The notes: generated by a model not told the origin, from the letters alone. A stretch of 64,000 nt of DNA from Deltaproteobacteria bacterium (GCA_016177705.1 JACOUT010000002.1:213604-277603); one strand, 5' to 3'; counted from the first letter of the stretch, positions 2,536 to 18,669 are shown. Numbers and translations are program-made.

Positions 2536-2705
2536 GGGTCCGCGCACCAGCGTCGCGGGCCCGAGCACCTCGCGCGCGGGCGCGGGCGCGGCGGAAAACG
2601 GTCGGCTGAGCGGCGCGGCGTGGGACACGAGAACCTCCCGGTCCTCGGACCATGCGCGCCCCGCGTCATGGCGTCGTCACGATGACGCGCCGCGTAGCGA
2701 CCTGA

Positions 2706-3605
2706 TCAGTTGCGGCACTCGCTGTCGCGGCAGGTCGGCTCCGTGGCGGGGCAGTCCTCGTCGACGCGGCACTGCTCGCACTTGGCGTCGACGCACACGG
2801 GGCGGTCGGCGTCCTGCACGCAGTCCGTGTCGGCGCGGCACTCCTCGCAGCGCTGGTCGACGCACACCGGCTTGTCGGCATCGGTGGTGCAGCTCGCGTC
2901 CTGCACGCACTCGACGCACGCGCCGCTGGCGACGTCGCAAGCGGGGCGATCGCCGCCACAACCGGCGTCGCTGGTGCAGGGCGCGAAGCACTCGAGGTCG
3001 GCGCCGCACAGGCCGTCGGACGGGCAGTCGGTGTTCTGCACGCACTCGCGGCACTCGCCTGTGACGCAGAAGGGCGCTGCCACGCCGCAGTCGTCGTTGC
3101 TCAAGCAGCGCTCGCAGCGGCCGGTCGGGCTGCACAGCGGGCCGTCGGCGCCGACGCAATCGTCCGCGAGCACGCACTCGACGCAGGCGGCGTACACCGG
3201 GTGACACACGCCACCGCCGCAGCTCGTGTCGTCCACGCAGGCCTCGACACACTCACCGCGCGGCGAGCAGCTAGGCGCCGCAGCGCCGCAGTCGTCGGCG
3301 GTGCGACACGCCGCGCAGCGGGCCTCGGAGGTACAGAACGGCTCGCCGGCCGGGCAGTCGGCGTCGCTGGCGCACTGCCCGCACATGCCGTTGGCGGCGC
3401 AGATCTCACCGCCGCAGCCCTGGTCCGCCTGGCACTCCACGCAGAAGCCCGCCGAACACAGCGGCGTCATGCCACCGCAGTCCTCGACCGCCGCGCAGGT
3501 GGCGCCGAGGCCGATGGTGCCGGCAGGGGTCGGATCGCCGCTGTCGGCAGGATCGGTGGGGCAACCTAGCACGAGCACGACGGCGAGCAGTCCAAGCCAA
3601 CGCAT
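2706..3605 (-). CDS. Cys-rich repeat lipoprotein (about 12 repeats of C-x-E-C-x2-D-x-D-C…P-x-C)
   Basis: Signal peptide plus lipobox (MRWLGLLAVVLVLGC). Regular roughly 24-aa repeats with conserved Cys spacing (CVECQADQGC…, CRECVQNTDC…, CEECRADTDC…, CEQCRVDEDC…). Confidence 0.6.
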   Translation of the reverse strand: MRWLGLLAVVLVLGCPTDPADSGDPTPAGTIGLGATCAAVEDCGGMTPLCSAGFCVECQADQGCGGEICAANGMCGQCASDADCPAGEPFCTSEARCAACRTADDCGAAAPSCSPRGECVEACVDDTSCGGGVCHPVYAACVECVLADDCVGADGPLCSPTGRCERCLSNDDCGVAAPFCVTGECRECVQNTDCPSDGLCGADLECFAPCTSDAGCGGDRPACDVASGACVECVQDASCTTDADKPVCVDQRCEECRADTDCVQDADRPVCVDAKCEQCRVDEDCPATEPTCRDSECRN

Positions 3606-3648
3606 GGGGACCTCCCACTGCTGCTACGTGCGCGGCCGAGGCGCGCGA

Positions 3649-4977
3649 TCACGCCGAGGTAGGGGCGTGTCGCAGGCGCCGCAGTACGACTCGCGCGCAG
3701 ATGGCGAGCACGAGCGCCATGCTCCACCAAAGCATGGCGCGCGCAGTATTCGGAGCGGTCGACGCGCACGCGCAGCCGACGTCGGTCGGCGACCCGCGCG
3801 CACTGTCCACCTCGCCGTCATCGTCGCTCGTGTCCGGCCCGACGCCTGCGTCCGGCTCGGGCTCGCGCGGACTGCCGGCGTCGGCGTCCACGGGCGGCAC
3901 GCCGCCGTCGACGTCGTCCTGCGGCGGCGGCGACATCGGCGAGTGGCAGCCGGTGTCGTCCCAGGTGCGGCCGAGCGCCACCGCGTGCTCGAGGTCCTGG
4001 CGCAGCGGTGCCGAGCAGCCGATGCAGAAGTCGCGGCCGCTGCCGTCGTCATTGCTGGTCCAGCGGTAGGGCGTTACCGCGCGGATCACCTGGTGCGGGT
4101 TCGCCTGGTTCCAGGAGAACACCTCCTCGTACAGCGCGACGAAGTAGCCGACGTCCTCGTCTCTGTAGGGGTCGCAAGGAGGGTCGCAGGCGCTGCCGGC
4201 CTCGGTGATGTAGAGCGGCAGGTCGAACAGCCCTCGCGCGGCGAGCAGCTCCGTGGTGTCGCGGTAGCCGCGGAAGTGCAGGCGCCACTTGCCCTCGCGG
4301 CCGGGGAACCACTCGTCGGAGGTGACGGCGGCGACGCTCATCTCGCGCGTGTAGGCGTGGATGGCCACGCCGTCGACGTCGCCACCTTGCGCGCGCACGC
4401 GGTCGATGGCGGCGGCCAGGCCGTCGTCCCAATCGCCCCAGTGATCGGTCCACGCCCACGGCGACATTGGCGCGAACAGGATCTCGTGCTCGCCGGCGTT
4501 CGGCAGCGCAGCGACCTGCTCTTGCACGGCCAGGTAGACGTCGGCGTACTCGGCCGGCGTGTAGGGGTAGCCCCAGCCGATGTTCGGCTCGTTGCCGACG
4601 ATCCACACCTTGACGCCGACGGCGTCGCGCACACAGCGCGCGAACTTGGCGGCGTAGCCGGCGACCGCCTCGGGCGTCGTCGGCAGCGGCGGTCCGCCGC
4701 CCCAGTCGAGCCGCAGGATGACGCCGTAGCCCTGGTCCGCGAGGCGCGAGTGCTCGATGGCGCAGTCGCCGCTGTCGCCGATGTACTCGAGCAGCGTGAC
4801 CCAGCCGCGAGCGCAGCCGCCCTCGGAGGGGAACAGCGACAGCTCGGGTTCATCGTGCATGCCGTAGAGGTACGGGCTCATGCCGGTCGGCACCGCCAAC
4901 GACGGCGCTGCGACGAGCGCGGCCACGAGCGCCGGGCCGAGCAGGTGCGGCGCTCGTGCTCGATCAATGAAAAACAT
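3649..4977 (-). CDS. Secreted glycoside hydrolase (GH-A clan, GH5-like) with a MYXO-CTERM sorting tail
   Basis: Signal peptide. WIVGNEPN (acid/base NEP motif) and LYITEAG (nucleophile TE motif). C-terminal GCACAS… followed by a hydrophobic helix and RRLRH, as in MYXO-CTERM. Confidence 0.6.
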
Positions 4978-5083
4978 TCGTTTTTTCTCGCGGGATGCGC
5001 GGCCGGGGTCAATCCCCCCTCTGGCGCCGCGCGCGCGCGTTCCCTACAACACCGAGGTCACCCGACGCGGAGAGCCAAGCGCC

Positions 5084-6648: not shown

Positions 6649-7908
6649 ATGGACCAGGCGCTGCTGGCGCGCTTCGCGCTCGATCCGGCCGTCACCTTCT
6701 TGAACCACGGCTCCTTCGGCGCCTGCCCGCGCGACGTGCTGGCAGTGCAGAGCGAGCTGCGCGAGCGCATGGAGCGCCAGCCGGTGCGCTTCTTCGCGCG
6801 CGAGCTGCCGGTACTTCTCGACGACGCGCGCGCGCCGCTCGCGCGCTTCCTGCACACCGCGCCCGAGCGCCTCGCCTTCGTGCCCAATGCGACCGCCGCC
6901 GTGAACGCGGTGCTGCGCTGGCTGCCGCTGTCGCCGGGGGACGAGCTGCTCACCACCGACCACATCTACAACGCGTGCAACAACGTACTCGAGGAGGCGG
7001 CGCGACACGCCGGCGCGCGCGTGGTGACGGCGCACGTGCCCTTCCCGCTCGCCAGCGACGACGACGTGGTAGCGCCGGTTTTGGCCGCGGTCACGCCGCG
7101 CACGCGCCTGGCCTTGCTCGATCACGTCACCAGCCCGACCGGCCTGGTGTTCCCGGTGGCGCGACTGGTGCGCGAGCTGCGCGCGCGCGGCGTCGAGTGC
7201 CTGGTCGACGCCGCGCATGCGCCCGGCCAGGTGCCGCTCGACGTCGACGCCATCGGCGCCGCCTGGCTCACCGGCAACTGCCACAAGTGGCTGTTCGCGC
7301 CCAAGGGCGCCGCGTTCCTAGCGGTGCGCGCCGACAAGCTCGAGGGCACGCGGCCCGCCGTGCTGTCGCACGGCGCCAACGCGCCGCCGGGCGCGCGCTC
7401 GCGCTTTCAGCTCGAGTTCGACTGGGTCGGCACCGTCGACCCGACGCCGTGGCTGGCGGTGCCGGCGGGGCTCTCCTTCGGCGAGCGGCTGTTCGAGGGC
7501 GGCTGGCCGGCGCTGATGGCGAGGAACCACGCGTTGGCGGTGGAGGCACGCGCGCTCTTGTGCACGGCGCTCGGCGTGCCCGAGCCTGCACCTGCCGCGA
7601 TGATCGGCGCGCTCGCGTCGGTGCCGCTGCCTGATGGCGACGGCACCACCGAGGGACCGCTCTACGGCGATCCGCTGCAGCGCGCGCTCGCCGAGCAGCA
7701 CGCCATCGAGGTGCCCATCGTGCCCTGGCCCCAGCCGCCGAGGCCGCGAGCTTCGCTCGCTCGCCATGGGCGGCCGTGCAGCGCAGCGCGGCCGCGGCGC
7801 TTGGTGCGCATCTCGGCGCAGGCCTACAACACGATCGAGCAGTACCGCAGGCTCGCCGACGCGCTCATCGCGTTGGTCGGTCGGGCTCGTGAGGCGCCGA
7901 CACGCTGA
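6649..7908 (+). CDS. Class V aminotransferase (isopenicillin-N epimerase / cysteine desulfurase-like, PLP-dependent)
   Basis: FLNHGSFGACP… N-terminus and typical fold-type I residues (…LVDAAHAPGQVPLDV…GNCHKWL…RISAQAYN…). Start at the ATG at 6649. Confidence 0.7.
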   Translation: MDQALLARFALDPAVTFLNHGSFGACPRDVLAVQSELRERMERQPVRFFARELPVLLDDARAPLARFLHTAPERLAFVPNATAAVNAVLRWLPLSPGDELLTTDHIYNACNNVLEEAARHAGARVVTAHVPFPLASDDDVVAPVLAAVTPRTRLALLDHVTSPTGLVFPVARLVRELRARGVECLVDAAHAPGQVPLDVDAIGAAWLTGNCHKWLFAPKGAAFLAVRADKLEGTRPAVLSHGANAPPGARSRFQLEFDWVGTVDPTPWLAVPAGLSFGERLFEGGWPALMARNHALAVEARALLCTALGVPEPAPAAMIGALASVPLPDGDGTTEGPLYGDPLQRALAEQHAIEVPIVPWPQPPRPRASLARHGRPCSAARPRRLVRISAQAYNTIEQYRRLADALIALVGRAREAPTR

Positions 7909-8035
7909 CGTCGCTCTCTTCGTCCGCACCTCCCGGCACGTCGTCCGCGAGCATCGGGACGTACCGCACGGTTGTGCTGCTGATCTATCTATCGCACGAT
8001 TTGTTGCCGTGGTATTCGCGATTCACGGAGGGACA

Positions 8036-8665
8036 ATGAAACGGATATCGCGTCTACTGATTCTCTTTGGGGCAGCCGGGCTCGCTGCTGGCGCTTCGTT
8101 ACCCCCCCCCCCCGTCGACACGCTGACGCCTGTCGACGGGCTTGGTGAGCCGCCTGGCAACGTCTGCGGCGACGAAGCCGCGCCATCACGAATTGCGGCA
8201 ATCGCCCCACTCGACGAACGCACCTACGACGCCGACGACGAGCCCGTGATGATGGTGGCGGTCGACCCGACCCTCCACTTCTCTGAGCTCGAGGTCCTCG
8301 CGACGCTGATTGACCCGCTCGGCTTCGTCCACGGGACCTTCCAGGTCCCGATCACTTCGCCGTCCGCCGACGCAGGCCTGGTCGAGGTCAAGCTGCCCAT
8401 CTGGCAGCTCTACCGCGGCAAGCCCGCGCTCCTGCACCTCCGCTTGCACGCCGTTGATAATGGCCACGTCGTCGCCAGCAACCACGTGGACGCAATCGCC
8501 CTGCTTCCCGTGGATGGGCTCGTTGCGGTCCTGGACTCCGATAACGCCCTACCGGTTTGGCCCACCGAGCGGACAGGGTCGCCGGCGGGTATCGCGGTTG
8601 TGGAGGACGGCGTAGCGCCGGCCCCGGTCTACGCGACCGAGGACGACGAGGAGGTGACGCCATGA
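8036..8665 (+). CDS. Secreted hypothetical protein, first gene of the accessory three-gene operon
   Basis: Signal peptide MKRISRLLILFGAAGLAAGA. AT-richer upstream region. Its stop overlaps the next start (ATGA). Confidence 0.55.
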   Translation: MKRISRLLILFGAAGLAAGASLPPPPVDTLTPVDGLGEPPGNVCGDEAAPSRIAAIAPLDERTYDADDEPVMMVAVDPTLHFSELEVLATLIDPLGFVHGTFQVPITSPSADAGLVEVKLPIWQLYRGKPALLHLRLHAVDNGHVVASNHVDAIALLPVDGLVAVLDSDNALPVWPTERTGSPAGIAVVEDGVAPAPVYATEDDEEVTP

Positions 8666-9873
8666 GCCTCATCGGCCTCACCGTGCGCGCGCTCTCGACC
8701 AGCACCCCTGCCCTGACGAGCAACGTGCGGCTCTGCTTCAAGGCGGCCGTCGTGTACGATGACGCTGCCCGCAATGACCTCGACGACGGCACCATCGAGG
8801 ACAACTGGGCCAGCGGGTCGTCGCAGACGCTGTTCGGCAGTCGCATCATCGCGACCAGCGGTGGGGTTGCCGTCCCTTTCGATACCCATCTCGGCGACGG
8901 GCTCGGCACCGGTGATCCGGGCTCGGGCTGTACGGCGAGCGTGCCGGTGACCCACTCGGGGCAGTTCTTCTCGGTCAGCTACACCGTCTACAGCAAGGGC
9001 ATCATCCAAGGGAACGAGCTCTACGTCCAGAACGCGGACTCGGGCAACTCCTATGCGAGCTTCCCCGGCACGCTCTACTACAGCTGCGCCGGCGGCGGGT
9101 GCAACCTCGCCACCACCGTCACCATCGCGCCCTCGGGGGCGATGCCGATCGCGATGTGGCAGGTGTACGCGGCCGATGCGTACTCGCTCTTCCGACATGC
9201 CGGCGGCCTAACCAGCAGCATCTTCACGGTGCGCCTGTCCAACGATCCGAACTACGACAGCGAATACAACCGGGGCACTGGCATCATCAGCATCCGACAG
9301 GTGGACGCAAAGGAGCGCTTCACCGATTCCCACGAGTTGGGCCATCGCATCGCCCACTTGAGGGGTTTGCCAACCGGGGACTGCGCCCTTGACGACGCCC
9401 AGTGTCCTTCCATCTCCGGGTCCCACTCCATGGGGTCAGAGGAGCACCAGTCTTGCTCGTTCAGTGAAGGCTTCGCGCATTTCTACGCCGCTGACGTCTG
9501 GAACTCTCACTACCAACAAGACTGCGTCTTCCAGTACTACAAGTACACGTCGCTTCCTGCCGTCGACTGCGAGGCGTCGCCTAACGACCTCTCGGACCCG
9601 GTGTCCTTCCCGCTCGCGATGCTTGAGAACACGTGCGGCAGCGGCATCAACGACCACGGGGTCGAGGTCGACTGGCTCAGGACCTTCTGGGATGTCCACA
9701 CCAACGGCAGCTCGCCTCCGACCTTCAACGACATGATGAACTGGATGCAGAGTGCGTTCTTCATCAACCTCACGCCACCGTTTGACGAGCTCGATGGCGA
9801 GGCCAACGCCGTTGGCGGCACGCTCAACCAGAACTGGGACGCAGCGGCGGACGGCAATGGCATCAATCACTAA
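8662..9873 (+). CDS. HExxH zincin-like putative metallopeptidase (no signal peptide)
   Basis: TDSHELGHRIAH zinc-binding motif with a downstream Glu-containing SEGFAHFY. Rich in Cys, Trp, Asn and Tyr. Lower GC than neighbouring genes. Translationally coupled to the genes on both sides. Confidence 0.5.
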   Translation: MSLIGLTVRALSTSTPALTSNVRLCFKAAVVYDDAARNDLDDGTIEDNWASGSSQTLFGSRIIATSGGVAVPFDTHLGDGLGTGDPGSGCTASVPVTHSGQFFSVSYTVYSKGIIQGNELYVQNADSGNSYASFPGTLYYSCAGGGCNLATTVTIAPSGAMPIAMWQVYAADAYSLFRHAGGLTSSIFTVRLSNDPNYDSEYNRGTGIISIRQVDAKERFTDSHELGHRIAHLRGLPTGDCALDDAQCPSISGSHSMGSEEHQSCSFSEGFAHFYAADVWNSHYQQDCVFQYYKYTSLPAVDCEASPNDLSDPVSFPLAMLENTCGSGINDHGVEVDWLRTFWDVHTNGSSPPTFNDMMNWMQSAFFINLTPPFDELDGEANAVGGTLNQNWDAAADGNGINH

Positions 9874-10531
9874 CCCCTGCGCCGTCACCACCGTCGCTGC
9901 TCTGGCACTGGTCTCCGCCTGCCCGTCGCCGCCTCCCTGCCCGGAGGTGGAGGGCGGGGAGGTCTCGGTGCGGGCCGGCTTCTCCACCGAGGACGGCGAA
10001 GTGACGCTCGCCTACGACGAGCCGACGCATCTCCGCGCTATCGCGGTTGCCACGGGGCAGCTCGTCGCCTACCTCGACGTCACGGCTCCGCCGGGCGTCG
10101 AGCTGGCCATCGCGCCGAATGAAGGCGCCACCTACCTGAGCGCCGCGAACGACGAAGAACGTGCCTATGCCCGGCTGACGGACTCACGCGGCACCCTCTT
10201 CGAGGGTGGCACGTTCTTCAGCCTCGCTCCGGTCATGAACCCACCCGCCCTGGTCGAAATCGAGGAGGACGGACAGTCCACCTGCATCGCCGCGAACGGA
10301 AGCCTGACCCGAAGCGTGGTGGCCCACCTGGGCCTCGACGAGCCCATCGACCTGCGCCGCGGGGAATATGCCTACGGGGAGCTCGGGGGGATACCGGCCT
10401 TCGCCATGCTCCCCGACGCTGCCGCCGTCGACCACCGCGGCGACCCGCCGACGGAGGACGGCGCGGATGTCGACACCAGCTACGGAGGCCACTCGGCCGT
10501 GTTCCGGCTGGCGGAGGCGGCCGCTCCCTGA
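9857..10531 (+). CDS. Lipoprotein of unknown function, third gene of the operon
   Basis: MASITNPCAVTTVAALALVSAC: signal peptide plus lipobox. Overlaps the previous gene by 17 nt. Confidence 0.5.
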   Translation: MASITNPCAVTTVAALALVSACPSPPPCPEVEGGEVSVRAGFSTEDGEVTLAYDEPTHLRAIAVATGQLVAYLDVTAPPGVELAIAPNEGATYLSAANDEERAYARLTDSRGTLFEGGTFFSLAPVMNPPALVEIEEDGQSTCIAANGSLTRSVVAHLGLDEPIDLRRGEYAYGELGGIPAFAMLPDAAAVDHRGDPPTEDGADVDTSYGGHSAVFRLAEAAAP

Positions 10532-10814
10532 GCGGGGGTGGCATGCTCGAGCGGCCCCGTGCGACCGCGCTCGAAGGGCCGGGGGGCGAGGGTGGGTCCG
10601 CCGCCGCGCCCATCCGGGCAGGACACCACACCGTTCGTTCACCACCAACCCGCCGATCGTGTCGGCGCGGCCCGCCACCGCGACAAGGGTCCGGACCGGC
10701 AAGGCGCGGAGGCGGACTCGCCCTCGCCCCCCGACCCGTCCCTCGCCTACGCCAGCTCCGTTGACGACGCGTGCGCGCAGCGGGTTGACCGAGATGGTCA
10801 TGAGCTCTATGATC

Positions 10815-11087
10815 ATGACCATGTCCTCGGAATGGAACGTCGCCGGCGCCAAGGCCGAGCTGTCGCGGCTGCTGCGCGAGGCGCAGCGCGAGCCGCAGGT
10901 GATCGAGAACCGTGGCCGGCCGGTCGCGGTGGTGCTCGGCGTGGACGACTACCAGGCGCTCACTGAGCGCGGCGCCGCCGTCGAGCGGTGGCAGCGACTG
11001 CTCGATACCAGCGCCGCCATTCGCGCCGCGGGCGGCGCGACACTGGTGGTCCCGCCGCGTCGTCCGCGCCGCTCGCCGTTCGCATGA
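10815..11087 (+). CDS. vapB: Type II antitoxin (Phd/YefM or VapB type)
   Basis: WNVAGAKAELSRLLREAQREPQVIENRGRPVAVVLGVDDYQAL is a typical antitoxin N-domain. Its stop overlaps the vapC start (ATGA). Confidence 0.6.
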   Translation: MTMSSEWNVAGAKAELSRLLREAQREPQVIENRGRPVAVVLGVDDYQALTERGAAVERWQRLLDTSAAIRAAGGATLVVPPRRPRRSPFA

Positions 11088-11494
11088 CCGCCCTCGTTGA
11101 CACCAACGTGCTGTCGGAGCTGCCTCGGCCGCGCCCGAACGCGAACGTGCTCAGATGGCTCGAGGGTCAGGGCGGACTCATGCTCAGCGTCGTCACGATC
11201 GAGGAGCTCGCGTTCGGCGTAGCGCGCACCCGCCCGGCCATACGGAGGCGCCTGGGTAGGTGGCTCGAGGAGCTCATCGCCGCGGCGGATCACACCTACG
11301 ACGTCACGCCGGCGATCGCGCGCGCGTCAGGCGAGCTGCGCGCGGCGCGGGAAGGCGCGGGGCGTCGGGTGGCACAGGCCGACATGTTGATCGCGGCCAC
11401 GGCGCTGGTCCACGGGCTACCGTTGGCGACGCGCAACACTCGCGACTTCCAGGGGTGCGGGATCGTCCTGGTGAACCCCTTCGGCGACTCGTAG
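11084..11494 (+). CDS. vapC: PIN-domain toxin VapC
   Basis: MTALVDTNVLSE… and later …DMLIAATA…TRNTRDF: the conserved PIN acidic residues. Confidence 0.75.
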   Translation: MTALVDTNVLSELPRPRPNANVLRWLEGQGGLMLSVVTIEELAFGVARTRPAIRRRLGRWLEELIAAADHTYDVTPAIARASGELRAAREGAGRRVAQADMLIAATALVHGLPLATRNTRDFQGCGIVLVNPFGDS

Positions 11495-12244
11495 GTTGGC
11501 TGACGCCGGCACCTCGTCCGACAGCTCAGGGACGTTCCGGCCCGGCAACGCCACGCTCGCGAGCGCTCGGCGCATGCGATCGGCAAGGCGCTCCGAGGGA
11601 TGGCGCACGACGCGCAACAGGCCGAGGATGATGGCGAAGGTGCGCACGAAGCTCGGCTGCTGATAGAGCACCAGCTCGTAGCGCTTGCCGCGCGCCCAGT
11701 AGTGCAGCTCGACCACCGGCCAGAGTTGGTCCTTGCGCGCCTTGACCTCGGGCTGCTGCTCGGCGCGCACCTCGGCGCGGCCGAGCACGCCCTCGAGGGC
11801 CAACCGGCCGCTGTTCGGCACCAGCTCGAGCACCGCGATCTCGTCGGGCACACGCTTGATTCTGTGCACGGTGACCACGGGCTCGACGTTGACGAGCGCG
11901 TGCACGCCGCCTGCGCCCCGCAACGCCGAGCCGGCCCGCCGCTCGAAGCGCCGCGTCATGAAACGCACCAGCGCCACCTCGCCGAACAGATCAAAGCAGC
12001 TCGATGCCGCCGCCAGCAACATGCCGGCGAGCGCACCCGTGACGCTGCCGCGGTCGAGCGAGAACACCAGCACACCGATACCGGCGGAGATGCCGAACAG
12101 CATGCCGATGAAGCCGAACACTCGCGCCAGCTCGATGACGCCGAGGCGCACGCCAGCGTTGTCGTGGAGGGGCTCTTCGAGCGGCGTCGGCACGGCGGGC
12201 TCCGACCGAGATGGTCCCACGCCGCCAGGAGAGCCAGCAAACAC
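11417..12244 (-). CDS. Membrane protein with two N-terminal TM helices and a cytoplasmic domain (possible bPH/YdbS-like DUF304)
   Basis: Two hydrophobic helices (LGVIELARVFGFIGMLFGISAGIGVLVF; GALAGMLLAAASSCFDLF) followed by a roughly 150-aa soluble domain. Strong GC3 bias. Its 3' end overlaps vapC convergently by 78 nt. Confidence 0.45.
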   Translation of the reverse strand: MFAGSPGGVGPSRSEPAVPTPLEEPLHDNAGVRLGVIELARVFGFIGMLFGISAGIGVLVFSLDRGSVTGALAGMLLAAASSCFDLFGEVALVRFMTRRFERRAGSALRGAGGVHALVNVEPVVTVHRIKRVPDEIAVLELVPNSGRLALEGVLGRAEVRAEQQPEVKARKDQLWPVVELHYWARGKRYELVLYQQPSFVRTFAIILGLLRVVRHPSERLADRMRRALASVALPGRNVPELSDEVPASANLRVAEGVHQDDPAPLEVASVARRQR

Positions 12245-12296
12245 CGACGCCGACCGCCCGCTTTCCCGCGCCGGCGCACGGTGGCAAGGAGCGCGC

Positions 12297-13148
12297 GTGG
12301 CGACGTGCCCGCACCCGATCCCCTACCAAGGCAGCAAGCGGCGCCTGGCGGCGCAAGTGCTCGCCTTCGTGCCGAACGACGTCGACACACTGTGGGAGCC
12401 CTGCTGTGGCTCGGCAGCCGTCTCGCTGGCGGCGGCGCGCGAACAGCGCGCGCGTCGCTTCGTGCTCGGCGACAGCCTGGCGCCCTTGTGCTCGCTGTGG
12501 CAGCGCATCCTCGACGAGCCGGGCGCGCTCGCCGACGAGTACCAGCGCCTGTGGTCGGCGCAGCGCGAGGCACCGCGCGCCTGGTACGACGAGGTGCGCG
12601 AGGCCTTCAACGCCGACCACGACCCGGCCAAGCTGTTGTTCCTGCTCGCGCGCTGTGTGAAGAGCGCGGTGCGCTTCAACGCCGCCGGGGCCTTCAACCA
12701 GTCGCCCGATCGTCGACGACGCGGTACGCGCCCCGAACGCATGCGCGAACACCTCCTTGGCGCGTCGGCGCTCTTGGCCGGACGCACCGAGGTGCGCGCC
12801 GGTGACTACGCACACGCGCTCGACGAGGCCACGGCCGGCGACCTCGTCTACCTCGACCCGCCCTGGCAGGGCACGAGCGGCGCGCGCGACCGCCGCTACC
12901 ACCAGCAACACGAGCGCGAGCGCTTCGTCGCCGACCTCGAGCGGCTGCTGGCGCGCGGCGTGCGTGTCGTCGTCAGCTACGACGGTCGCACGGGCGATCG
13001 CCGGTACGGCGAACCGCTGCCGGAGCGCCTGGGGCTGGTGCGCCGTGAGCTGTTCGCCGGGCGATCGACGCAGGCGACGCTGCACGGGCGCAGCAGCGAG
13101 ACCGTCGAATCGCTCTACCTGTCACCGTCGCTCGTGGGCGCCGGCTGA
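12297..13148 (+). CDS. Orphan Dam-family (D12 class) N6-adenine DNA methyltransferase
   Basis: PYQGSKRRLA (motif X/I) and DPPW (DPPY-like motif IV). In-frame GTG start at 12297. No adjacent restriction endonuclease gene. Confidence 0.7.
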   Translation: MATCPHPIPYQGSKRRLAAQVLAFVPNDVDTLWEPCCGSAAVSLAAAREQRARRFVLGDSLAPLCSLWQRILDEPGALADEYQRLWSAQREAPRAWYDEVREAFNADHDPAKLLFLLARCVKSAVRFNAAGAFNQSPDRRRRGTRPERMREHLLGASALLAGRTEVRAGDYAHALDEATAGDLVYLDPPWQGTSGARDRRYHQQHERERFVADLERLLARGVRVVVSYDGRTGDRRYGEPLPERLGLVRRELFAGRSTQATLHGRSSETVESLYLSPSLVGAG

Positions 13149-13181
13149 CGACGGCTGAGGACGGCTGACGTCGGCTGGCAG
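13142..13181. repeat. Four tandem copies of a 10-bp unit CGGCTGASGW
   Basis: cggctgacga cggctgagga cggctgacgt cggctggcag. Lies between the methyltransferase stop and the yebC-like start. Confidence 0.8.
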
Positions 13182-13224
13182 ACGTGCAACAAGGCCGCGA
13201 CAGCCGCTTGTAGGAGCACCGCCG

Positions 13225-13950
13225 ATGGGACGCATCTTCGAGACGCGCAAGGCCACCATGTTCGCCCGCTGGAACAAGATGTCCAAGCAGTTCACGCGCA
13301 TTTCCAAGGACATCGTCATGGCCGTCAAGTCGGGCGGCCCCGACCCCGGCAGCAACCCCTCGCTGCGTCGGCAGATTCAGAACGCGCGCGCGCTCAACAT
13401 GCCCAAGGACAAGATCGAGGCGGCCATCAAGCGCGCCCAGGGCAAGGACACGGCCAACTACGAAGAGCTGATCTACGAGGGCTACGCGCCGCACGGCATC
13501 GCCGTGCTCGTCGTCACCGCCACCGACAACCCGACGCGCACCGTCACCAACGTGCGCACCGCGTTCGGCAAGGCGGGCGGCAACCTCGGCAGCACGGGCA
13601 GCGTCGCCTTCGCCTTCACGCGCATGGGCGTGTTCCGGCTCGACCCAGCGAGCGTCAAGGACGCCGAGCAGCTCGAGCTCGAGCTGATCGATCACGGGCT
13701 CGAGGAGATGGGCGAGGGCACGGGCGAGAAGGGCGAGAAGCAGATCGTGATCCGCTGCGCGCTCGCCAGCTTCGGCGAGATGCAGAAGGCGCTCGAGGCG
13801 CGCGGCCTGACACCGCTGTCGTCGGAGTCCGAGTTCATCCCGCAAAACCCGATGACCTTGCCGGAGGAGAAGGCCACCGAGGTGCTCGCCATGGTCGACA
13901 AGCTCGAGCAGGACGAGGACGTCCAGCAGGTCTTCCACAACCTCGGCTGA
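13225..13950 (+). CDS. YebC/PmpR-family transcriptional regulatory protein
   Basis: [41 protein letters not shown]… is a highly conserved YebC N-terminus. Confidence 0.8.
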
Positions 13951-13971
13951 CCGCGCGGCACAGATGATGCA

Positions 13972-15033
13972 GTGGCGCGCGCCATGCGCGTCATTACCCT
14001 CATCGTCGTCACGCTGCTCGCCGTGCCTGCCGCACCCTCGTGCGCGCCCACCACCTACGTGGTGGCGCCCGATCCACCGCCGCCGACGCCGCTCGATCCG
14101 TTCTTCGACGACCTCGGCCCCTATGGCGATTGGTGGTGGAACGACACCTGGGGTTGGGTGTGGAGCCCCACGGTCGGCTACGGCTGGCGTCCGTACACCG
14201 TCGGCCACTGGGTCTGGACCGCGGAGTGGGGCTGGCTCTGGGCCTCGTCCGAGCCCTTCGGGTGGGCGTGCTTCCACTATGGCCGTTGGATCTGGCTCGA
14301 CGACGCCGGCTGGGTCTGGCTGCCCGGACGCACCTGGGGGCCCGGCTGGGTGATGTGGCGCAGCGGCCCCGGCTACGTCGGCTGGGTGCCGCTCGGCCCC
14401 GGGCCGTTCCACGAGCCGCACGTGCACCTCTGGTGGTGGGTGGTCGTCGAGGAGCGGCACTTCCTGGCGCCCAACGTGGTCGAGGTCGCCGTGCCGCCCG
14501 ATCGCAACCCGGTGGTGCTTCCGAGCACGCGCGTGCTGCATCGCCCCGAGCGCGACGACGGCGCGGCGTCGCCCAACCGCGACATCGACGTGCAGGCGAT
14601 CGAGCGCGCGACCTCGACCAAGGTGCTGCCCAAGCGGGTGCTCGAGGCCAAGGACGCCGGCGCCGAGCTGCCGGACGCGGTGACCGTGCGACGTGCGCCC
14701 GACATCGGGCCCGACCGCGTCGGCGGGCGGCAGGACCTGTTCGCGCCTACGCGCGAGCTGGCGCGTGACCGGCCCGTCGACGAGCGGCCGCTCTCGGCGC
14801 CGCCCGACGACGAGCTCGAGCGCTACTTCGGCGCCGCGCGCGCGCGCCTCGACGAGCGGCAGCGCGCCGAGCAAGGCGCCCCGCCCAAGGGTGTGCCGCC
14901 CGACAAGCTGCGCGCCATGCAGGAGGACGAGCGGCGCGTGCTCGAGGAGCAGGAGCAGAAGGAGCGCGAGGCCGCCGCCAAGAAGAAGGCGCAGAAGCGG
15001 CCGGCGCTCGTCAAGAAGACCAAGAAGCGCTGA
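13972..15033 (+). CDS. Trp-rich lipoprotein with a Lys/Glu-rich C-terminal tail
   Basis: Signal plus lipobox (LLAVPAAPSC). About 25 Trp in roughly 130 aa, in GW/WxW patterns. C-terminal EEQEQKEREAAAKKKAQKRPALVKKTKKR. Confidence 0.55.
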   Translation: MARAMRVITLIVVTLLAVPAAPSCAPTTYVVAPDPPPPTPLDPFFDDLGPYGDWWWNDTWGWVWSPTVGYGWRPYTVGHWVWTAEWGWLWASSEPFGWACFHYGRWIWLDDAGWVWLPGRTWGPGWVMWRSGPGYVGWVPLGPGPFHEPHVHLWWWVVVEERHFLAPNVVEVAVPPDRNPVVLPSTRVLHRPERDDGAASPNRDIDVQAIERATSTKVLPKRVLEAKDAGAELPDAVTVRRAPDIGPDRVGGRQDLFAPTRELARDRPVDERPLSAPPDDELERYFGAARARLDERQRAEQGAPPKGVPPDKLRAMQEDERRVLEEQEQKEREAAAKKKAQKRPALVKKTKKR

Positions 15034-15042
15034 CGCTCGGGC

Positions 15043-16614
15043 TCACTGGCAGTAGCCGGGATCGATCATCCACCAGCCGCGCCGCGCGCCTGGGCTCCAC
15101 ACCACGAGCGGCCCGCCGTAGTTACACACGTGGTAGCCGTACCAGCGGCCCGCGCAGCCGGTGTTGCTGACAGCGATCTCGTCGGTGTGGCCAACCTCGT
15201 GCTGCCCGGCGCTGTAGCCGCGCGCGCGCAGCTCGGCGGTCACGGCCGCAAACCAGCTCTGGCACTTCTCCTCCGCGTTGGCGCCCGCAAACGCGCTCAG
15301 GTCACAGCTGCTCGACACGCCGCAGCCGGTGAGCGCGACCATGGCCGCGTTGACCGCGGCGTCGACCTCGGGATCGGTGTCGGTGCTGGAGGTCGCAGCG
15401 GCGATGAAGCCCTCCTCGGGCACGCCCACCGGGAAGGCCGCCGCCGACGGCTCGCTGCACTGCTCGCCGAGCACAGCGAGCGACTCGTGGAGCTGCGCCT
15501 CGGTCTGCTCGTGTCGCCAGTACCAAAAGGCCGTGCCCTGCGTGCGCGCTGCGCAGAAGCGCTGCTCGAACTGGGCAGGGGTCAGCGCGGGCGACGGGTT
15601 GTACTCGTTGACCATGCAGGGCTTGCCGAGGCACTGCGCGGCGCTCGGCGCCTGCGTCTGGTGGAACTCGAGGTAGTCGACCTCGGCGAGCTGCATGGCC
15701 GCGTCCTCGCCGGCGTTGGTGCCGAACGGGTGGCGCAGGTAGCCGTGCCGCTGCTCCTCGTCGCGGATCAGGTCGTGCATCGATCGCGTCCACTCCGCGG
15801 TGTAGCCGGCGATCAGGCTCACCTCGTTGCCGTCCTGGTACAGCACGTTGTCGAAGCGGCCGGTCTCCAACACCACCTTGCGGATCCATGCCTCGTGCAC
15901 CGAGCCGGGCGCCACCGGCTCGCTCCCTGCGGCCGAGCACAGGTCGAGCCCTTGCACGTTGAAGGCGGCGTCCCACGCGCTGTAGCCGGGGATGTCGCCG
16001 GCCTGGCAGTGTTTGATCGACCAGCCGTCGACGACGTCGATCTCGACGTACTGGCCGTGGTCGCGCGCGAGCTGCACGAGCGCGCGCACGCGCGCCCAGA
16101 ACGCGTCGTTGAATTGCGCGAGGTCCGCGCGACCGTCCACCTCGAGGTAGCCGCCACCGGTCGCCGCCCAGTCGGTCTCGCCGTTGCCGGCGGTGAGGAA
16201 CGGGCCGAGGCGCGCGTGCAGGAAGTTGCCGTCGTTGTCCGCCACCAAGGCCGACCAGGCCTCGTCGAACAGAGGCCAACCATAGCCGCCGCCGCAGCAG
16301 GAGATCGCTCCCCGCACGTCGACCACGGCGCCGTCGACGCGGACGAAACGCCCGTCCTGCGCCGATAGCGCCATCGAGGTCGGCGGCACGCCGGCGTCGG
16401 GCTCGCCGTCCGTGCCGGCGTCCGGCTCGACCTCCTCGCCGGCGTCGCGCACCGGTCCCGCGTCGCTCTGAGTGCCGGCGTCCGTGAGGTGGCCGGCATC
16501 GCCCGCCTCGGCCGGGTCGGGCTGGTCGTCGTCGACGCCCGTCGGTGTGCAGCAGACGAACGCGAGAGGAAGCACCAGCAGGGCGAGGGATCTCATAGGC
16601 GGCGACGGTTTCAT
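15043..16614 (-). CDS. Secreted lipoprotein, glycoside-hydrolase-like (clan GH-A-like NE motifs)
   Basis: MKPSPPMRSLALLVLPLAFVCC signal. Acidic low-complexity linker. LYQDGNEVS and MVNEYNP motifs. Confidence 0.45.
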   Translation of the reverse strand: MKPSPPMRSLALLVLPLAFVCCTPTGVDDDQPDPAEAGDAGHLTDAGTQSDAGPVRDAGEEVEPDAGTDGEPDAGVPPTSMALSAQDGRFVRVDGAVVDVRGAISCCGGGYGWPLFDEAWSALVADNDGNFLHARLGPFLTAGNGETDWAATGGGYLEVDGRADLAQFNDAFWARVRALVQLARDHGQYVEIDVVDGWSIKHCQAGDIPGYSAWDAAFNVQGLDLCSAAGSEPVAPGSVHEAWIRKVVLETGRFDNVLYQDGNEVSLIAGYTAEWTRSMHDLIRDEEQRHGYLRHPFGTNAGEDAAMQLAEVDYLEFHQTQAPSAAQCLGKPCMVNEYNPSPALTPAQFEQRFCAARTQGTAFWYWRHEQTEAQLHESLAVLGEQCSEPSAAAFPVGVPEEGFIAAATSSTDTDPEVDAAVNAAMVALTGCGVSSSCDLSAFAGANAEEKCQSWFAAVTAELRARGYSAGQHEVGHTDEIAVSNTGCAGRWYGYHVCNYGGPLVVWSPGARRGWWMIDPGYCQ

Positions 16615-16829
16615 CCGCTGCACGCGCAGGCGTTCATCGCCGCGCCAAACGAGTGCGCGCCCGCGCCAGCGGCATCGAGCCACCTGCAGCGCCACACACC
16701 TCGGCGCGTGACGTGTGGCGCATTGCTGCACGCGAATGGCGCGCGTTCACCACGGAAAACACCGTGTCGACGTGGAAACGACGCACGCGCCGCTTGTGAG
16801 GTTGGATCGCATGTGCGTCGATCGCGCGC

Positions 16830-18653
16830 ATGAACCGCTTGAGCTGCACCGCCGTGCTCGCTTGCACCTTCGTGCTCTTCACCTCGATCGGCGTGCGCGC
16901 CGACGCCGCAGCCGACCTGCGCCTGCAAAAGGCGCTCGGCTACGAGGCACGTACGGCGGCCATGAGCCCGAACGGCCTGGTGCACCAGGCGGTGGTCGAC
17001 GGCGACACCGTGGTGGAGCTGCGCGCCACCTCGGACTGCGCCATCTGGACCGGCGTGCAAGCCGGCGCCGCCGCGCTGCGCTTCTCGCTCTACCGGGACG
17101 AGGCGTCGCGCGCCTCCTTGCGGCGCGCCGTGCTCGGCGTGCACCTGTTGTTTCAGGTGACCGGCGTGCCCGGCCTGTTCGGTCGCTGCGCCTGGCGCAA
17201 CGACGACGCCATCTTCGTCGACGACACCGCGGTGGTGCACCCGGGCGCGCCGCCGTTCGAGGACTACTCGTGGCGCGCGCGGGTCTCGCAAGACCAGGTG
17301 AGCGGCGTGCTGTTCGGCTACGCGCTTGCCTATGAGCTGACCGACGACGAGGAGCTGCGCGTCATCATCAGGGACGACCTGGGCGCGTTGGCGCGGCACG
17401 TACGCGATCACGACTTGCAGATCATCGACGTCGACGGCGAGCCTTCGCCCTTCACCGACTTCAACCCGACCACCGTCGAGCTGTTCGGCATCGGCGTCGG
17501 CGGCTTCCAGGCCGCCATGGCGCTGTCGCTGTTCAAGATCGCTGCGCACGTGACCGGCGACCCCGCGCTCGCGAGCTACTACCAAGACGAGCTGGTCGGC
17601 GCGCGTGGCTTCGCCGACCTGGTGCGAGACCAATTGCACGTCGAGGTGCCCGACGCGCTCCGCCTGTTCGACGCCGGCGTCGAGTGCGACACCAACTACA
17701 ACAACTACAACATGATGTTCCTGGTGATGCTGCCGCTGGCGCGCCTCGAGCAGGATCCGGCGCTGGCGGCGCTCTACCGGGACGCCATCCGCGATCACCT
17801 GTGGAACGACGAGGGTGAGCCGCCGCTCGTCGGCGCCTTCCCGCTCCCCGGCGGCGCCAATCACCGGCCCGTCCGAGGCCAACGGAATTCCTTCTGGACC
17901 TACCTGACCTATGCGGCCGGCGCCGAGGCGACCGACGAGGTCGTGCTCGGCGAGGCGCAGCACACGCTCGACGTGTTCTTCGCGCCGCCGGCGCGCGGGC
18001 CGGCCGAGGTGGACAACAGCGCGGACTTCCCGTCGCAGTGCCTCGACCGCTTCGAACAGCCCATGCACAAGGGAGCCGTCATCCCCTACGAGCGACGCGT
18101 GCCGGGCTTCTTCGCTTGGACCGGCAACCCGTACAGCGTCGCGTCGGGCGCGCCGCCCGAGGAGTTCCCCGGTGTCGACTACCAGATCGCCTACTGGCTC
18201 GGCCGCTGGACCGGGCTATTGCCGCACGGCGACGCCGACGGCGACGGGCTCGACGACGATCGGGAGCCCTACTTCGGCACCGACCCGAGCGCGGCCGACA
18301 GCGACGGCGACGGCGTCAGCGACGGCGTCGAGGTAGACGAGCTTGGCACCGATCCGACCGTCAGCGACGCGCCGCCCAGCGAAGGGGAAGGCGAAGGGGA
18401 GGGCGAGGGCGAAGGTGAAGGCGAGGGGGAAGGAGAAGGAGCGCAGCCCGCCGAGGGCGAGGGCGAGGACGGCGGCGAGGGCGAGGACGGCGACCAGGGC
18501 GCGCGCCCGCCCGGCGGCGGTGGTGACGAGGTGCCGTCCTGCGCGTGCGTGACGTCGGAGGGCGGTGAGCGCTCGCTCGCGCTCGGGCTCTTCGTGCTGC
18601 TCGCTGCGCGCGCCGCCGTGCCGCGGCGGCAGCCTCCGAAGGCCAGCGGCTGA
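16830..18653 (+). CDS. Secreted protein with thrombospondin-type-3-like Ca-binding repeats, a (GE)n linker and MYXO-CTERM
   Basis: Signal peptide. DADGDGLDDDREPYFGTDPSAADSDGDGVSDGVEVDELGTDP. (GE)11. C-terminal SCACVTSEGG… followed by a hydrophobic helix and RAAVPRRQ. Confidence 0.6.
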   Translation: MNRLSCTAVLACTFVLFTSIGVRADAAADLRLQKALGYEARTAAMSPNGLVHQAVVDGDTVVELRATSDCAIWTGVQAGAAALRFSLYRDEASRASLRRAVLGVHLLFQVTGVPGLFGRCAWRNDDAIFVDDTAVVHPGAPPFEDYSWRARVSQDQVSGVLFGYALAYELTDDEELRVIIRDDLGALARHVRDHDLQIIDVDGEPSPFTDFNPTTVELFGIGVGGFQAAMALSLFKIAAHVTGDPALASYYQDELVGARGFADLVRDQLHVEVPDALRLFDAGVECDTNYNNYNMMFLVMLPLARLEQDPALAALYRDAIRDHLWNDEGEPPLVGAFPLPGGANHRPVRGQRNSFWTYLTYAAGAEATDEVVLGEAQHTLDVFFAPPARGPAEVDNSADFPSQCLDRFEQPMHKGAVIPYERRVPGFFAWTGNPYSVASGAPPEEFPGVDYQIAYWLGRWTGLLPHGDADGDGLDDDREPYFGTDPSAADSDGDGVSDGVEVDELGTDPTVSDAPPSEGEGEGEGEGEGEGEGEGEGAQPAEGEGEDGGEGEDGDQGARPPGGGGDEVPSCACVTSEGGERSLALGLFVLLAARAAVPRRQPPKASG

Positions 18654-18669
18654 GCGGTCGCGGCTGCGC

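Follow-up and report, generated by a model that had tools for sequence, protein, structure and literature searches.

The stretch of DNA analyzed here (the window) comprises 64,000 nucleotides (nt) from a Deltaproteobacteria bacterium (GCA_016177705.1, JACOUT010000002.1:213604-277603), and this study concerns its positions 7909 to 13224, which lie between a gene for a class-V aminotransferase and yebC. The span contains three overlapping genes (g1, g2, and g3) centered on a metallopeptidase-like protein, a toxin-antitoxin pair, a membrane-protein gene on the opposite strand, and a DNA methyltransferase gene. An initial annotation, made from the sequence alone, had taken all of this as a single accessory island. 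The gene positions that it proposed were confirmed by open reading frame (ORF) listing and translation, and the features, including the insertion delimited below, are the following (aa, amino acids).

6649-7908: class-V aminotransferase gene (ORF listing and translation).
~7881-11521: insertion of ~3.64 kb where the convergent aminotransferase and membrane-protein genes meet (blastn).
8036-8665, plus strand: g1, an exported 209-aa protein with a Sec leader, a disordered stretch, an all-beta domain of ~120 aa, and an acidic disordered tail.
8662-9873, plus strand: g2, a 403-aa predicted thermolysin-fold, gluzincin-like metallopeptidase of an undescribed sequence family, with HELGH at residues 224-228 and E269 as putative third ligand.
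9857-10531, plus strand: g3, a 224-aa lipoprotein with lipobox LVSAC, overlapping g2 by 17 nt.
10573-10740: imperfect hairpin in the spacer between the two modules of the insertion (repeat search).
10785-10813, plus strand: promoter-like site TTGACC-17-TATGAT (10/12 matches), just 5' of the antitoxin ATG at 10821.
10821-11087, plus strand: Phd/YefM-family antitoxin, 88 aa from the ATG at 10821, with an alternative start at 10794 (PF02604, 5e-13; TIGR01552, 1.8e-10).
11084-11494, plus strand: PIN-domain, VapC-type toxin, 136 aa (PF01850, 2.4e-17).
11417-12193, minus strand: membrane protein with two transmembrane helices, 258 aa, a lineage-restricted core gene outside the insert.
12297-13148, plus strand: D12-class N6-adenine DNA methyltransferase, 283 aa, GTG start (PF02086, 1.7e-23), outside the insert.
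13225-13950: yebC (ORF listing).

The gene overlaps are real: besides the 17 nt common to g2 and g3, an ATGA joins g1 to g2, and another joins the antitoxin to the toxin. Also present as described are the Sec-type leader of g1 (MKRISRLLILFGAAGLAAGA followed by S), the lipobox of g3, and the HExxH motif of the 403-aa g2 protein. None of g1, g2, g3, or the membrane protein gave a match in Pfam or NCBIfam.

Contigs of related bacteria were located via homologues of the membrane protein among 5.8 billion proteins, which yielded six distinct genomes at the aminotransferase-yebC locus, at ~80% nt identity to the window (L026/27, L028/29, L030, L031/32, and L033; L and P numbers are our labels). Contigs L026 to L030 were aligned to the window by blastn, and L031 to L033 were judged from gene tables only. 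In the alignments, the window is colinear with the relatives up to ~7880 and again from ~11522, with no other break within the span and only tens of bases in the matching gap; in the gene tables, the membrane-protein and aminotransferase genes overlap and no insert is present. The insert sits exactly at the 3' ends of these two convergent core genes, and of the membrane protein only the variable C-terminal tail, beyond a conserved part that ends at LPGRNVPE, runs into the inserted DNA. The order yebC, methyltransferase, membrane protein (opposite strand), aminotransferase was found in all six relatives, with a contig-end ORF (no Pfam look-up) at the yebC position in L033. Beyond the aminotransferase, a glyoxalase gene and then a Zn-ribbon gene follow in every relative except L033, with one extra gene in between in L030. 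At the protein level, identity to the relatives is 79 to 86% for the methyltransferase (measured for L026, L028, and L030), 78 to 80% for the aminotransferase, 91 to 93% for YebC, and 66 to 76% for the membrane protein. Because they stand in the same order in the relatives and diverge like the flanking housekeeping genes, the methyltransferase and the membrane protein are syntenic lineage-core genes.

Absence from the same site in the relatives thus holds for 7881-11521 and not for 11522-13224. The accessory DNA is limited to the ~3.64 kb of ~7881-11521, which hold g1-g2-g3 and the Phd/VapC pair, and positions 11522-13224 are core chromosome. Of the island proposed for 7.9 to 13.2 kb, which loses the methyltransferase and the membrane protein, there remains a lineage-variable insert that carries the HExxH operon together with the toxin-antitoxin pair. 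Synteny as core genes, which the initial annotation had itself set against an island, was found for exactly this membrane-protein/methyltransferase half of the span. With moderate confidence, we therefore read the locus as a 3.6-kb, two-module insert, carrying an exported metallopeptidase operon and a toxin-antitoxin pair, beside a core methyltransferase and membrane protein. The corrected map leaves only these 3.6 kb as accessory.

By base composition, the three-gene block stands out modestly and the remaining genes do not. The GC content of the window is 71.6%, and the lowest 2.5-kb stretch of the 64 kb starts at 7751 (0.659, against a mean of 0.715 and a standard deviation of 0.016). The lowered GC content that had been ascribed to the entire block is confined to ~7750-10000 (0.60 to 0.68), whereas 10250-13250 (0.70 to 0.74) equals the flanks. 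At third codon positions (GC3), g1, g2, and g3 reach 0.80, 0.86, and 0.85, compared with a mean of 0.915 (standard deviation, 0.034) for the 41 putative genes of the window; the toxin-antitoxin pair, the membrane protein, and the methyltransferase, at 0.86 to 0.89, fall within the host range. The low GC content of g2 is mainly a matter of amino acid composition, with N, Y, F, S, and T making up 32% of its residues and a first-position GC content of 0.55. The abundance of AAT codons noted earlier is not borne out (3 AAT versus 20 AAC in g2), and TAC and TTC are C-ending codons typical of the host.

The insert is composed of two independent modules, the cassette g1-g2-g3 and the toxin-antitoxin pair. 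Positions 8125-10543 of the window are 83% identical at the nt level to contigs L021 to L025 (L022). There, the cassette lacks a toxin-antitoxin pair, is again GC poor (0.60 to 0.66, versus 0.72 to 0.81 in its surroundings), and has unrelated flanks (a 273-aa gene, an Asp/Glu racemase, and EF-Ts). A relative at 74% aa identity, L004, keeps all three genes, and its left flank (in L034 to L037) is different again. The suggestion that the three genes travel together is upheld by their retention in the L022 and L004 cassettes: across the three diverged copies, with 57 to 84% aa identity, g1, g2, and g3 are kept together with overlapping frames. Apart from a marginal capP match at the HExxH region (E = 0.004), the cassette had no counterpart among the PADLOC and PHROGs models; no defense-system model in PADLOC meaningfully matches the three-gene operon, and the label of a defense island is not supported.

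Some further observations concern the surroundings of such cassettes. In metagenome assemblies, contigs (L021 to L025 and L034 to L037) end time and again either 170 bp 5' of the g1 homologue or ~100 bp inside the g2 homologue, as is typical of strain-variable or multicopy DNA; L004, a contig of 2.85 kb assigned to a Chloroflexota bin, contains nothing but the cassette. Positions 1-351 of L034 are 78% identical to positions 3191-3541 of L008, ~4 kb upstream of a distant (36% aa identity) g2-family operon in a metagenome-assembled genome (MAG) of the Polyangiaceae, a similarity that might reflect the replacement of one cassette by another at a common locus. At the P0008 locus (L002, 3056-5305), an IS66-family element lies ~380 nt downstream of the g2 homologue and comprises TnpB_IS66 and DDE_Tnp_IS66 genes with a small ORF before them.

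The second module is an ordinary, apparently intact type II toxin-antitoxin pair, made up of a Phd/YefM antitoxin and a predicted RNase of the PIN/VapC type. The acidic residues D6, E42, D100, and D121 of the PIN toxin are all present in the translation. Of the VapBC assignment made initially, the PIN/VapC toxin with its ATGA-overlapping antitoxin stands, whereas the antitoxin is of the Phd/YefM type (PF02604) and not a classical VapB. Such hybrid pairing of Phd/YefM and PIN proteins is common and already known. The promoter-like TTGACC-17-TATGAT is the only sigma-70-like site in 7700-13400 and ends 7 nt before the antitoxin ATG, which points to a transcript of the pair with little or no leader and favors the shorter version of the antitoxin (88 aa). 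The 260-nt spacer between the pair and the cassette contains the hairpin, with 52-nt arms (81% complementary) and a 64-nt loop, which is unique in the window and folds as RNA with z = -4.08; an Rfam scan of 7000-14000 returned nothing, the hairpin included. It could be an operon terminator or the scar of a junction between separately acquired modules.

The central protein of the cassette, g2, belongs to a family much larger than first thought: a word-indexed search gave 23 relatives, and a HMMER profile run in full over 1.84 billion cluster representatives reached 1,814 clusters at E ≤ 1e-3 (1,480 at E ≤ 1e-10). None of the established families accommodates it by sequence. Against PDB sequences, g2 had no significant match (phmmer and a profile search gave only marginal metzincin matches); Peptidase_M4, M4_C, and M36 gave no Pfam or NCBIfam match for g2 at E ≤ 0.1; none of ten further family members had any Pfam domain; and no FTP/PepSY propeptide domain was detected in g1, g2, or the long forms of the family described below. 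By its predicted tertiary structure, g2 was placed with the two-lobed thermolysin-like fold, to which ~250 of its residues align at 8 to 12% identity. Its HELGH motif (residues 224-228) sits within a predicted helix (219-233), and E269 lies six residues into the helix 263-280, in the motif SEGFAHF, which we take to be the position and context of the third ligand of thermolysin in NEAISD, a comparison resting on established knowledge of M4 enzymes.

Residue conservation, computed over 145 representatives of the family, is high at these positions: H224 is kept in 99%, E225 and H228 in 98%, and E269 and N281 in 100%, so that the HExxH residues, on whose conservation the first reading depended, are indeed kept in homologues. 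H255, E261, and D337 are conserved in 99%, and the cysteine pairs C25/C90, C248/C325, and C288/C303 in 88 to 100%; the latter probably stabilize g2 by disulfides. Zinc is likely bound by H224, H228, and E269, and E225 is the putative general base. We confidently place g2 among the zinc peptidases of clan MA(E), the gluzincins, with a thermolysin fold and outside the M4 and M36 sequence families; its catalysis is predicted. H255 and E261 (window 9424-9426 and 9442-9444) are found in a Cys-containing loop between the active-site helices without an obvious thermolysin counterpart, and they may form a second metal site or have a role in the transition state.

The initial annotation had treated the lack of a signal peptide as a trait of g2, which does not hold for the family: most homologues have clear leaders. 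Together with the conservation of the motif and of the cysteines, these leaders characterize the family as exported, disulfide-bonded zinc peptidases within clan MA. In g2 itself, the 21-residue stretch that precedes the conserved VRLC strand, MSLIGLTVRALSTSTPALTSN (window 8662-8724), resembles a weak signal peptide, with Arg9 in the hydrophobic core of the leader where the 84% and 74% identical relatives have Leu. The same leader region of the L022 copy contains a 1-nt frameshift in a C run (826-890). Both changes reflect either a leader in decay within this clade or errors of assembly; a leaderless state would be at most a peculiarity or decay of a small clade.

The partners of g2 are best considered in light of the domain organization of the family. 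Of 144 representatives, 100 have a short form (~400 aa) and the other 44 a long form (~550 to 720 aa) with an N-terminal extension, an N-domain of ~200 aa of lipoprotein type that starts with a lipobox in the long forms examined. A hidden Markov model (HMM) of 42 such extensions matches separate genes upstream of short-form proteases, at 96 bits for L002, 73 for L008, 43 for L011, 39 for L015, and 37 for L018 (with E ≤ 1e-7 in every case, even if the database is nominally set at 1e6). As the N-domain HMM matches separately encoded upstream genes, the N-domain has undergone natural fission or fusion. Neighbors were examined at 11 short-form loci, and in 10 of them a same-strand upstream ORF overlaps the protease start or lies within ~100 nt of it; the upstream ORF of the eleventh, L014, encodes a 505-aa protein of a different kind. 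The window fits this organization in position, with g1 in the place of the fused or split N-domain, and in length, since g1 and g2 sum to 612 aa and fused forms measure 611 to 618 aa. In an AlphaFold2 model of the g1+g2 concatenate, residues 53-167 of g1 are all-beta between disordered segments (predicted local distance difference test score, 62 to 84).

Downstream of the protease, a lipoprotein gene is present at 7 of the 11 short-form loci and at none of the fused forms. These lipoproteins fall into at least three unrelated families: g3 with its L004 and L022 counterparts, the L016 and L019 proteins, and the Cys-rich L008 and L015 proteins. For g3, the two closest cassettes, L022 (70%) and L004 (57%), were the sole source of homologues found, and JGI metagenome contigs gave none, either in a single-protein scan or in a scan with the three-sequence alignment; close homologues of g1 number only five.

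Taken together, these observations are consistent with a translationally coupled operon whose three products would all be exported by Sec. The catalytic component, a zinc endopeptidase, would be g2; g1 would be the counterpart of the N-domain that acts in cis or in trans, and g3 a lipoprotein partner. In such a system, g1 and g3 may tether g2 at the envelope, restrain it there, or both, like a pro-domain, an inhibitor, or an anchor, and active g2 would degrade extracellular or envelope proteins. Of the two guesses in the initial annotation, a secreted protease with partners agrees better with the thermolysin fold and with export in the family than does a toxin with delivery and immunity proteins.

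Several points weigh against this reading or parts of it. Comparison of g1 with the fused and split N-domains by BLASTP (versus P0009 and P0010), hhalign (probability <1%), and the HMM (5.8 bits) detected no homology, and the model of the concatenate has a predicted template modeling score of 0.64, with no readable interface; the equivalence of g1 to the N-domain would follow solely from position, size, export signal, and predicted all-beta fold. The g3-type lipoproteins are nonhomologous between subfamilies and absent beside fused forms, so that a conserved role is at most putative. Given Arg9 and the frameshift, export of this g2 copy and of the L022 copy is uncertain. Finally, neither a mobility gene nor a repeat explains the arrival of the insert: no integrase or transposase ORF marks it, window 1-25000 holds no tRNA, and its borders show no convincing flanking direct repeats, those present being short and at chance level. 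With the relatives compared by synteny, loss in them may have occurred instead of gain here.

The first of these points would be readily explained if g1 and g3 were mere cotranscribed neighbors, with g1 a nonorthologous replacement lacking any N-domain-like role and g2 working alone as a secreted protease. The missing sequence and profile similarity of g1 to the N-domain or to split partners extends to the upstream genes of L016, L017, and L019, which likewise have no detectable homology to it, and the confinement of g3 relatives to the closest cassettes points the same way. Yet the joint retention of all three genes with overlapping frames in three diverged cassettes, the exported, start-overlapping upstream ORF at nearly all short-form loci, and the equal length of g1 plus g2 and the fused forms all argue against chance neighbors, and we consider this explanation possible but unlikely.

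Alternatively, it is tempting to see in g1-g2-g3 a toxin system comparable to polymorphic toxin-immunity modules, with g2 as a protease toxin directed at competitors or prey, g3 as its cognate immunity or inhibitor lipoprotein, and g1 as a delivery protein or chaperone. The downstream lipoprotein, kept in position but drawn from at least three or four unrelated families, behaves as immunity genes often do; the cassette occurs in varied genomic contexts, adjoins a toxin-antitoxin pair, and coincides with assembly breaks; and the family is found mainly in Myxococcota-like MAGs, that is, in predatory or social bacteria. However, neither the window nor the neighborhoods of homologues contain secretion-system, Rhs, CdiA, or other delivery markers, PADLOC offers only the marginal capP match, and fused forms do without the downstream lipoprotein. 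Moreover, the conserved part of g2 is the protease domain and not a C-terminal tip, and ordinary Sec leaders point to simple export, which makes a toxin system decidedly unlikely. A broader idea, for which we see slightly better but still poor prospects, is that the g2 family forms a widespread class of envelope-tethered, thermolysin-fold proteases with a regulatory or anchoring domain in cis or in trans and with rapidly swapped lipoproteins as cognate inhibitors or immunity proteins, that is, a mobile weapon with a safety catch used in Myxococcota-like predation or kin competition. The locus would represent a new kind of biology only if the partners turned out to serve in immunity or delivery. 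The tethered-protease reading, which we prefer, would still offer a defined system of three proteins for asking how an exported protease is tethered or held inactive, and an annotation handle for the "hypothetical proteins" of ~1,800 clusters (at 50% identity) without a Pfam or NCBIfam model.

The direction of the event also deserves consideration, since the 3.6-kb segment might be ancestral and deleted in the related genomes. The lack of target-site duplications and mobility genes at its borders would be in line with this, as would the 83% nt identity of the cassette to L022, which is similar to core-gene divergence among the relatives. Against it stand the tight gene junction and missing segment in all six relatives across a range of 58 to 75% membrane-protein identity, the close cassette copies at other loci, the GC3 of the cassette below that of the host, and the fact that the two modules are not found together elsewhere. 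We regard an ancestral segment as improbable and retain an insertion of two modules.

Turning to the core genes beside the insert, the minus-strand membrane protein does have the two hydrophobic helices described, and its start is probably the GTG at 12193, giving 258 aa. The bPH-like domain attributed to it was not recovered, with no Pfam match at E ≤ 0.1 and nothing relevant from a profile of its 13 homologues against the PDB. These 13 were the only homologues among the 5.8 billion proteins, all of them 56 to 87% identical, and the family appears restricted to the clade. The membrane-protein and methyltransferase genes are divergently transcribed from a shared region of ~100 bp and are paired in all six relatives.

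The methyltransferase carries motif IV as LDPPW (DPPW). Its initial assignment to the Dam class is right as to the D12-class adenine methyltransferase domain (PF02086) and falls short as to Dam itself, with 92.3 bits against a cutoff of 114.85 for the NCBIfam Dam model (TIGR00571). The enzyme adjoins yebC in L026 to L032, the relatives whose contigs reach that far, and it does lack a restriction partner, being flanked by yebC and the membrane protein in these relatives as in the window. In L033, an extra 351-aa gene (1670-2725) lies between the methyltransferase and the membrane protein; it had no Pfam, PADLOC, nuclease, or defense match, and it could be a lost restriction partner or an unrelated insertion. 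GATC occurs in the window at an observed/expected ratio of 1.00, neither avoided nor enriched, and so is no guide to specificity. Matches to phages are only distant (<30% identity), which gives no sign of a recent phage origin. With its syntenic position between yebC and the aminotransferase, the gene is a lineage-conserved orphan and not the mobile-element remnant it was first taken for, and it most likely provides constitutive, restriction-independent N6-methyladenine (m6A) methylation in the clade. It is thus better regarded as a candidate enzyme for m6A of a housekeeping or regulatory kind in this Myxococcota-like lineage than as defense debris.

That the whole of 7.9 to 13.2 kb is one defense or mobile-element remnant island, including the membrane protein and an orphaned restriction-modification methyltransferase, is highly improbable: although the best model for the methyltransferase is a type II restriction-modification methyltransferase cluster (PADLOC PDLC03341, 250 bits), L033 has the extra unannotated gene beside it, and the GC3 of the membrane protein (0.86) and the methyltransferase (0.89) is slightly under the window mean, both genes match the flanking housekeeping genes in synteny and divergence in six relatives, the GC content of 10250-13250 is that of the flanks, and the L033 gene resembles no nuclease or defense protein.

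The wider neighborhood holds several indel hotspots. Two further segments of the window, 2693-5016 and 13957-18654, are absent at the same positions from L026 to L029. They contain ORFs without Pfam matches (2706-3623 and 3649-5043), a DUF6600 protein (13972-15033, present in L030), a 562-aa ORF without a Pfam match, and a TSP3-repeat protein.

Each part of the locus has counterparts among known systems. Like the orphan methyltransferases Dam of gamma-proteobacteria and CamA of Clostridioides difficile, the enzyme described here is of the D12 class, has no adjacent endonuclease, and keeps its position across relatives; CamA is a clade-conserved orphan adenine methyltransferase (PMC8187626). 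In contrast to Dam, the enzyme described here scores below the Dam family cutoff and lies beside yebC and a lineage-specific membrane protein. A literature search on orphan methyltransferases of Myxococcota returned nothing specific. The toxin-antitoxin pair resembles VapBC and Phd-Doc modules in having a PIN toxin with four acidic residues after a small, ATGA-overlapping antitoxin and a promoter-like site directly upstream, and it differs from classical VapBC in that the antitoxin is Phd/YefM and not an AbrB, MazE, or ribbon-helix-helix VapB, with the toxin below the NCBIfam VapC equivalog cutoffs.

The closest structural parallels of g2 are the thermolysin-like M4 enzymes (thermolysin and LasB/pseudolysin) and the M36 fungalysins, which share the HExxH helix and the Glu on the next helix in (S/N)E(G/A)xxx and are likewise secreted with disulfides. 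Sequence identity to them is only 8 to 12%, without a Pfam M4 or M36 match, and g2 has in addition a Cys-containing loop of ~35 residues between the helices, with the invariant H255 and E261. Instead of an FTP/PepSY propeptide, the g2 family has an all-beta partner domain, provided either as the fused lipoprotein N-domain or by a separate gene. The propeptides of M4 enzymes act as chaperones and inhibitors, and the serralysin AprA has a periplasmic beta-barrel inhibitor, AprI/Inh. As in these protease-partner operons, an exported metalloprotease here stands beside small exported, beta-rich proteins. The partners show no homology to AprI/Inh, FTP, or PepSY in Pfam or NCBIfam and are lipoproteins in many members of the g2 family, and the likeness to inhibitors and chaperones is one of analogy; a literature search on trans-acting thermolysin propeptides returned nothing specific. 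Within that analogy, the N-domain of the g2 family, fused in some members and split in others, is reminiscent of a pro-domain able to act in trans.

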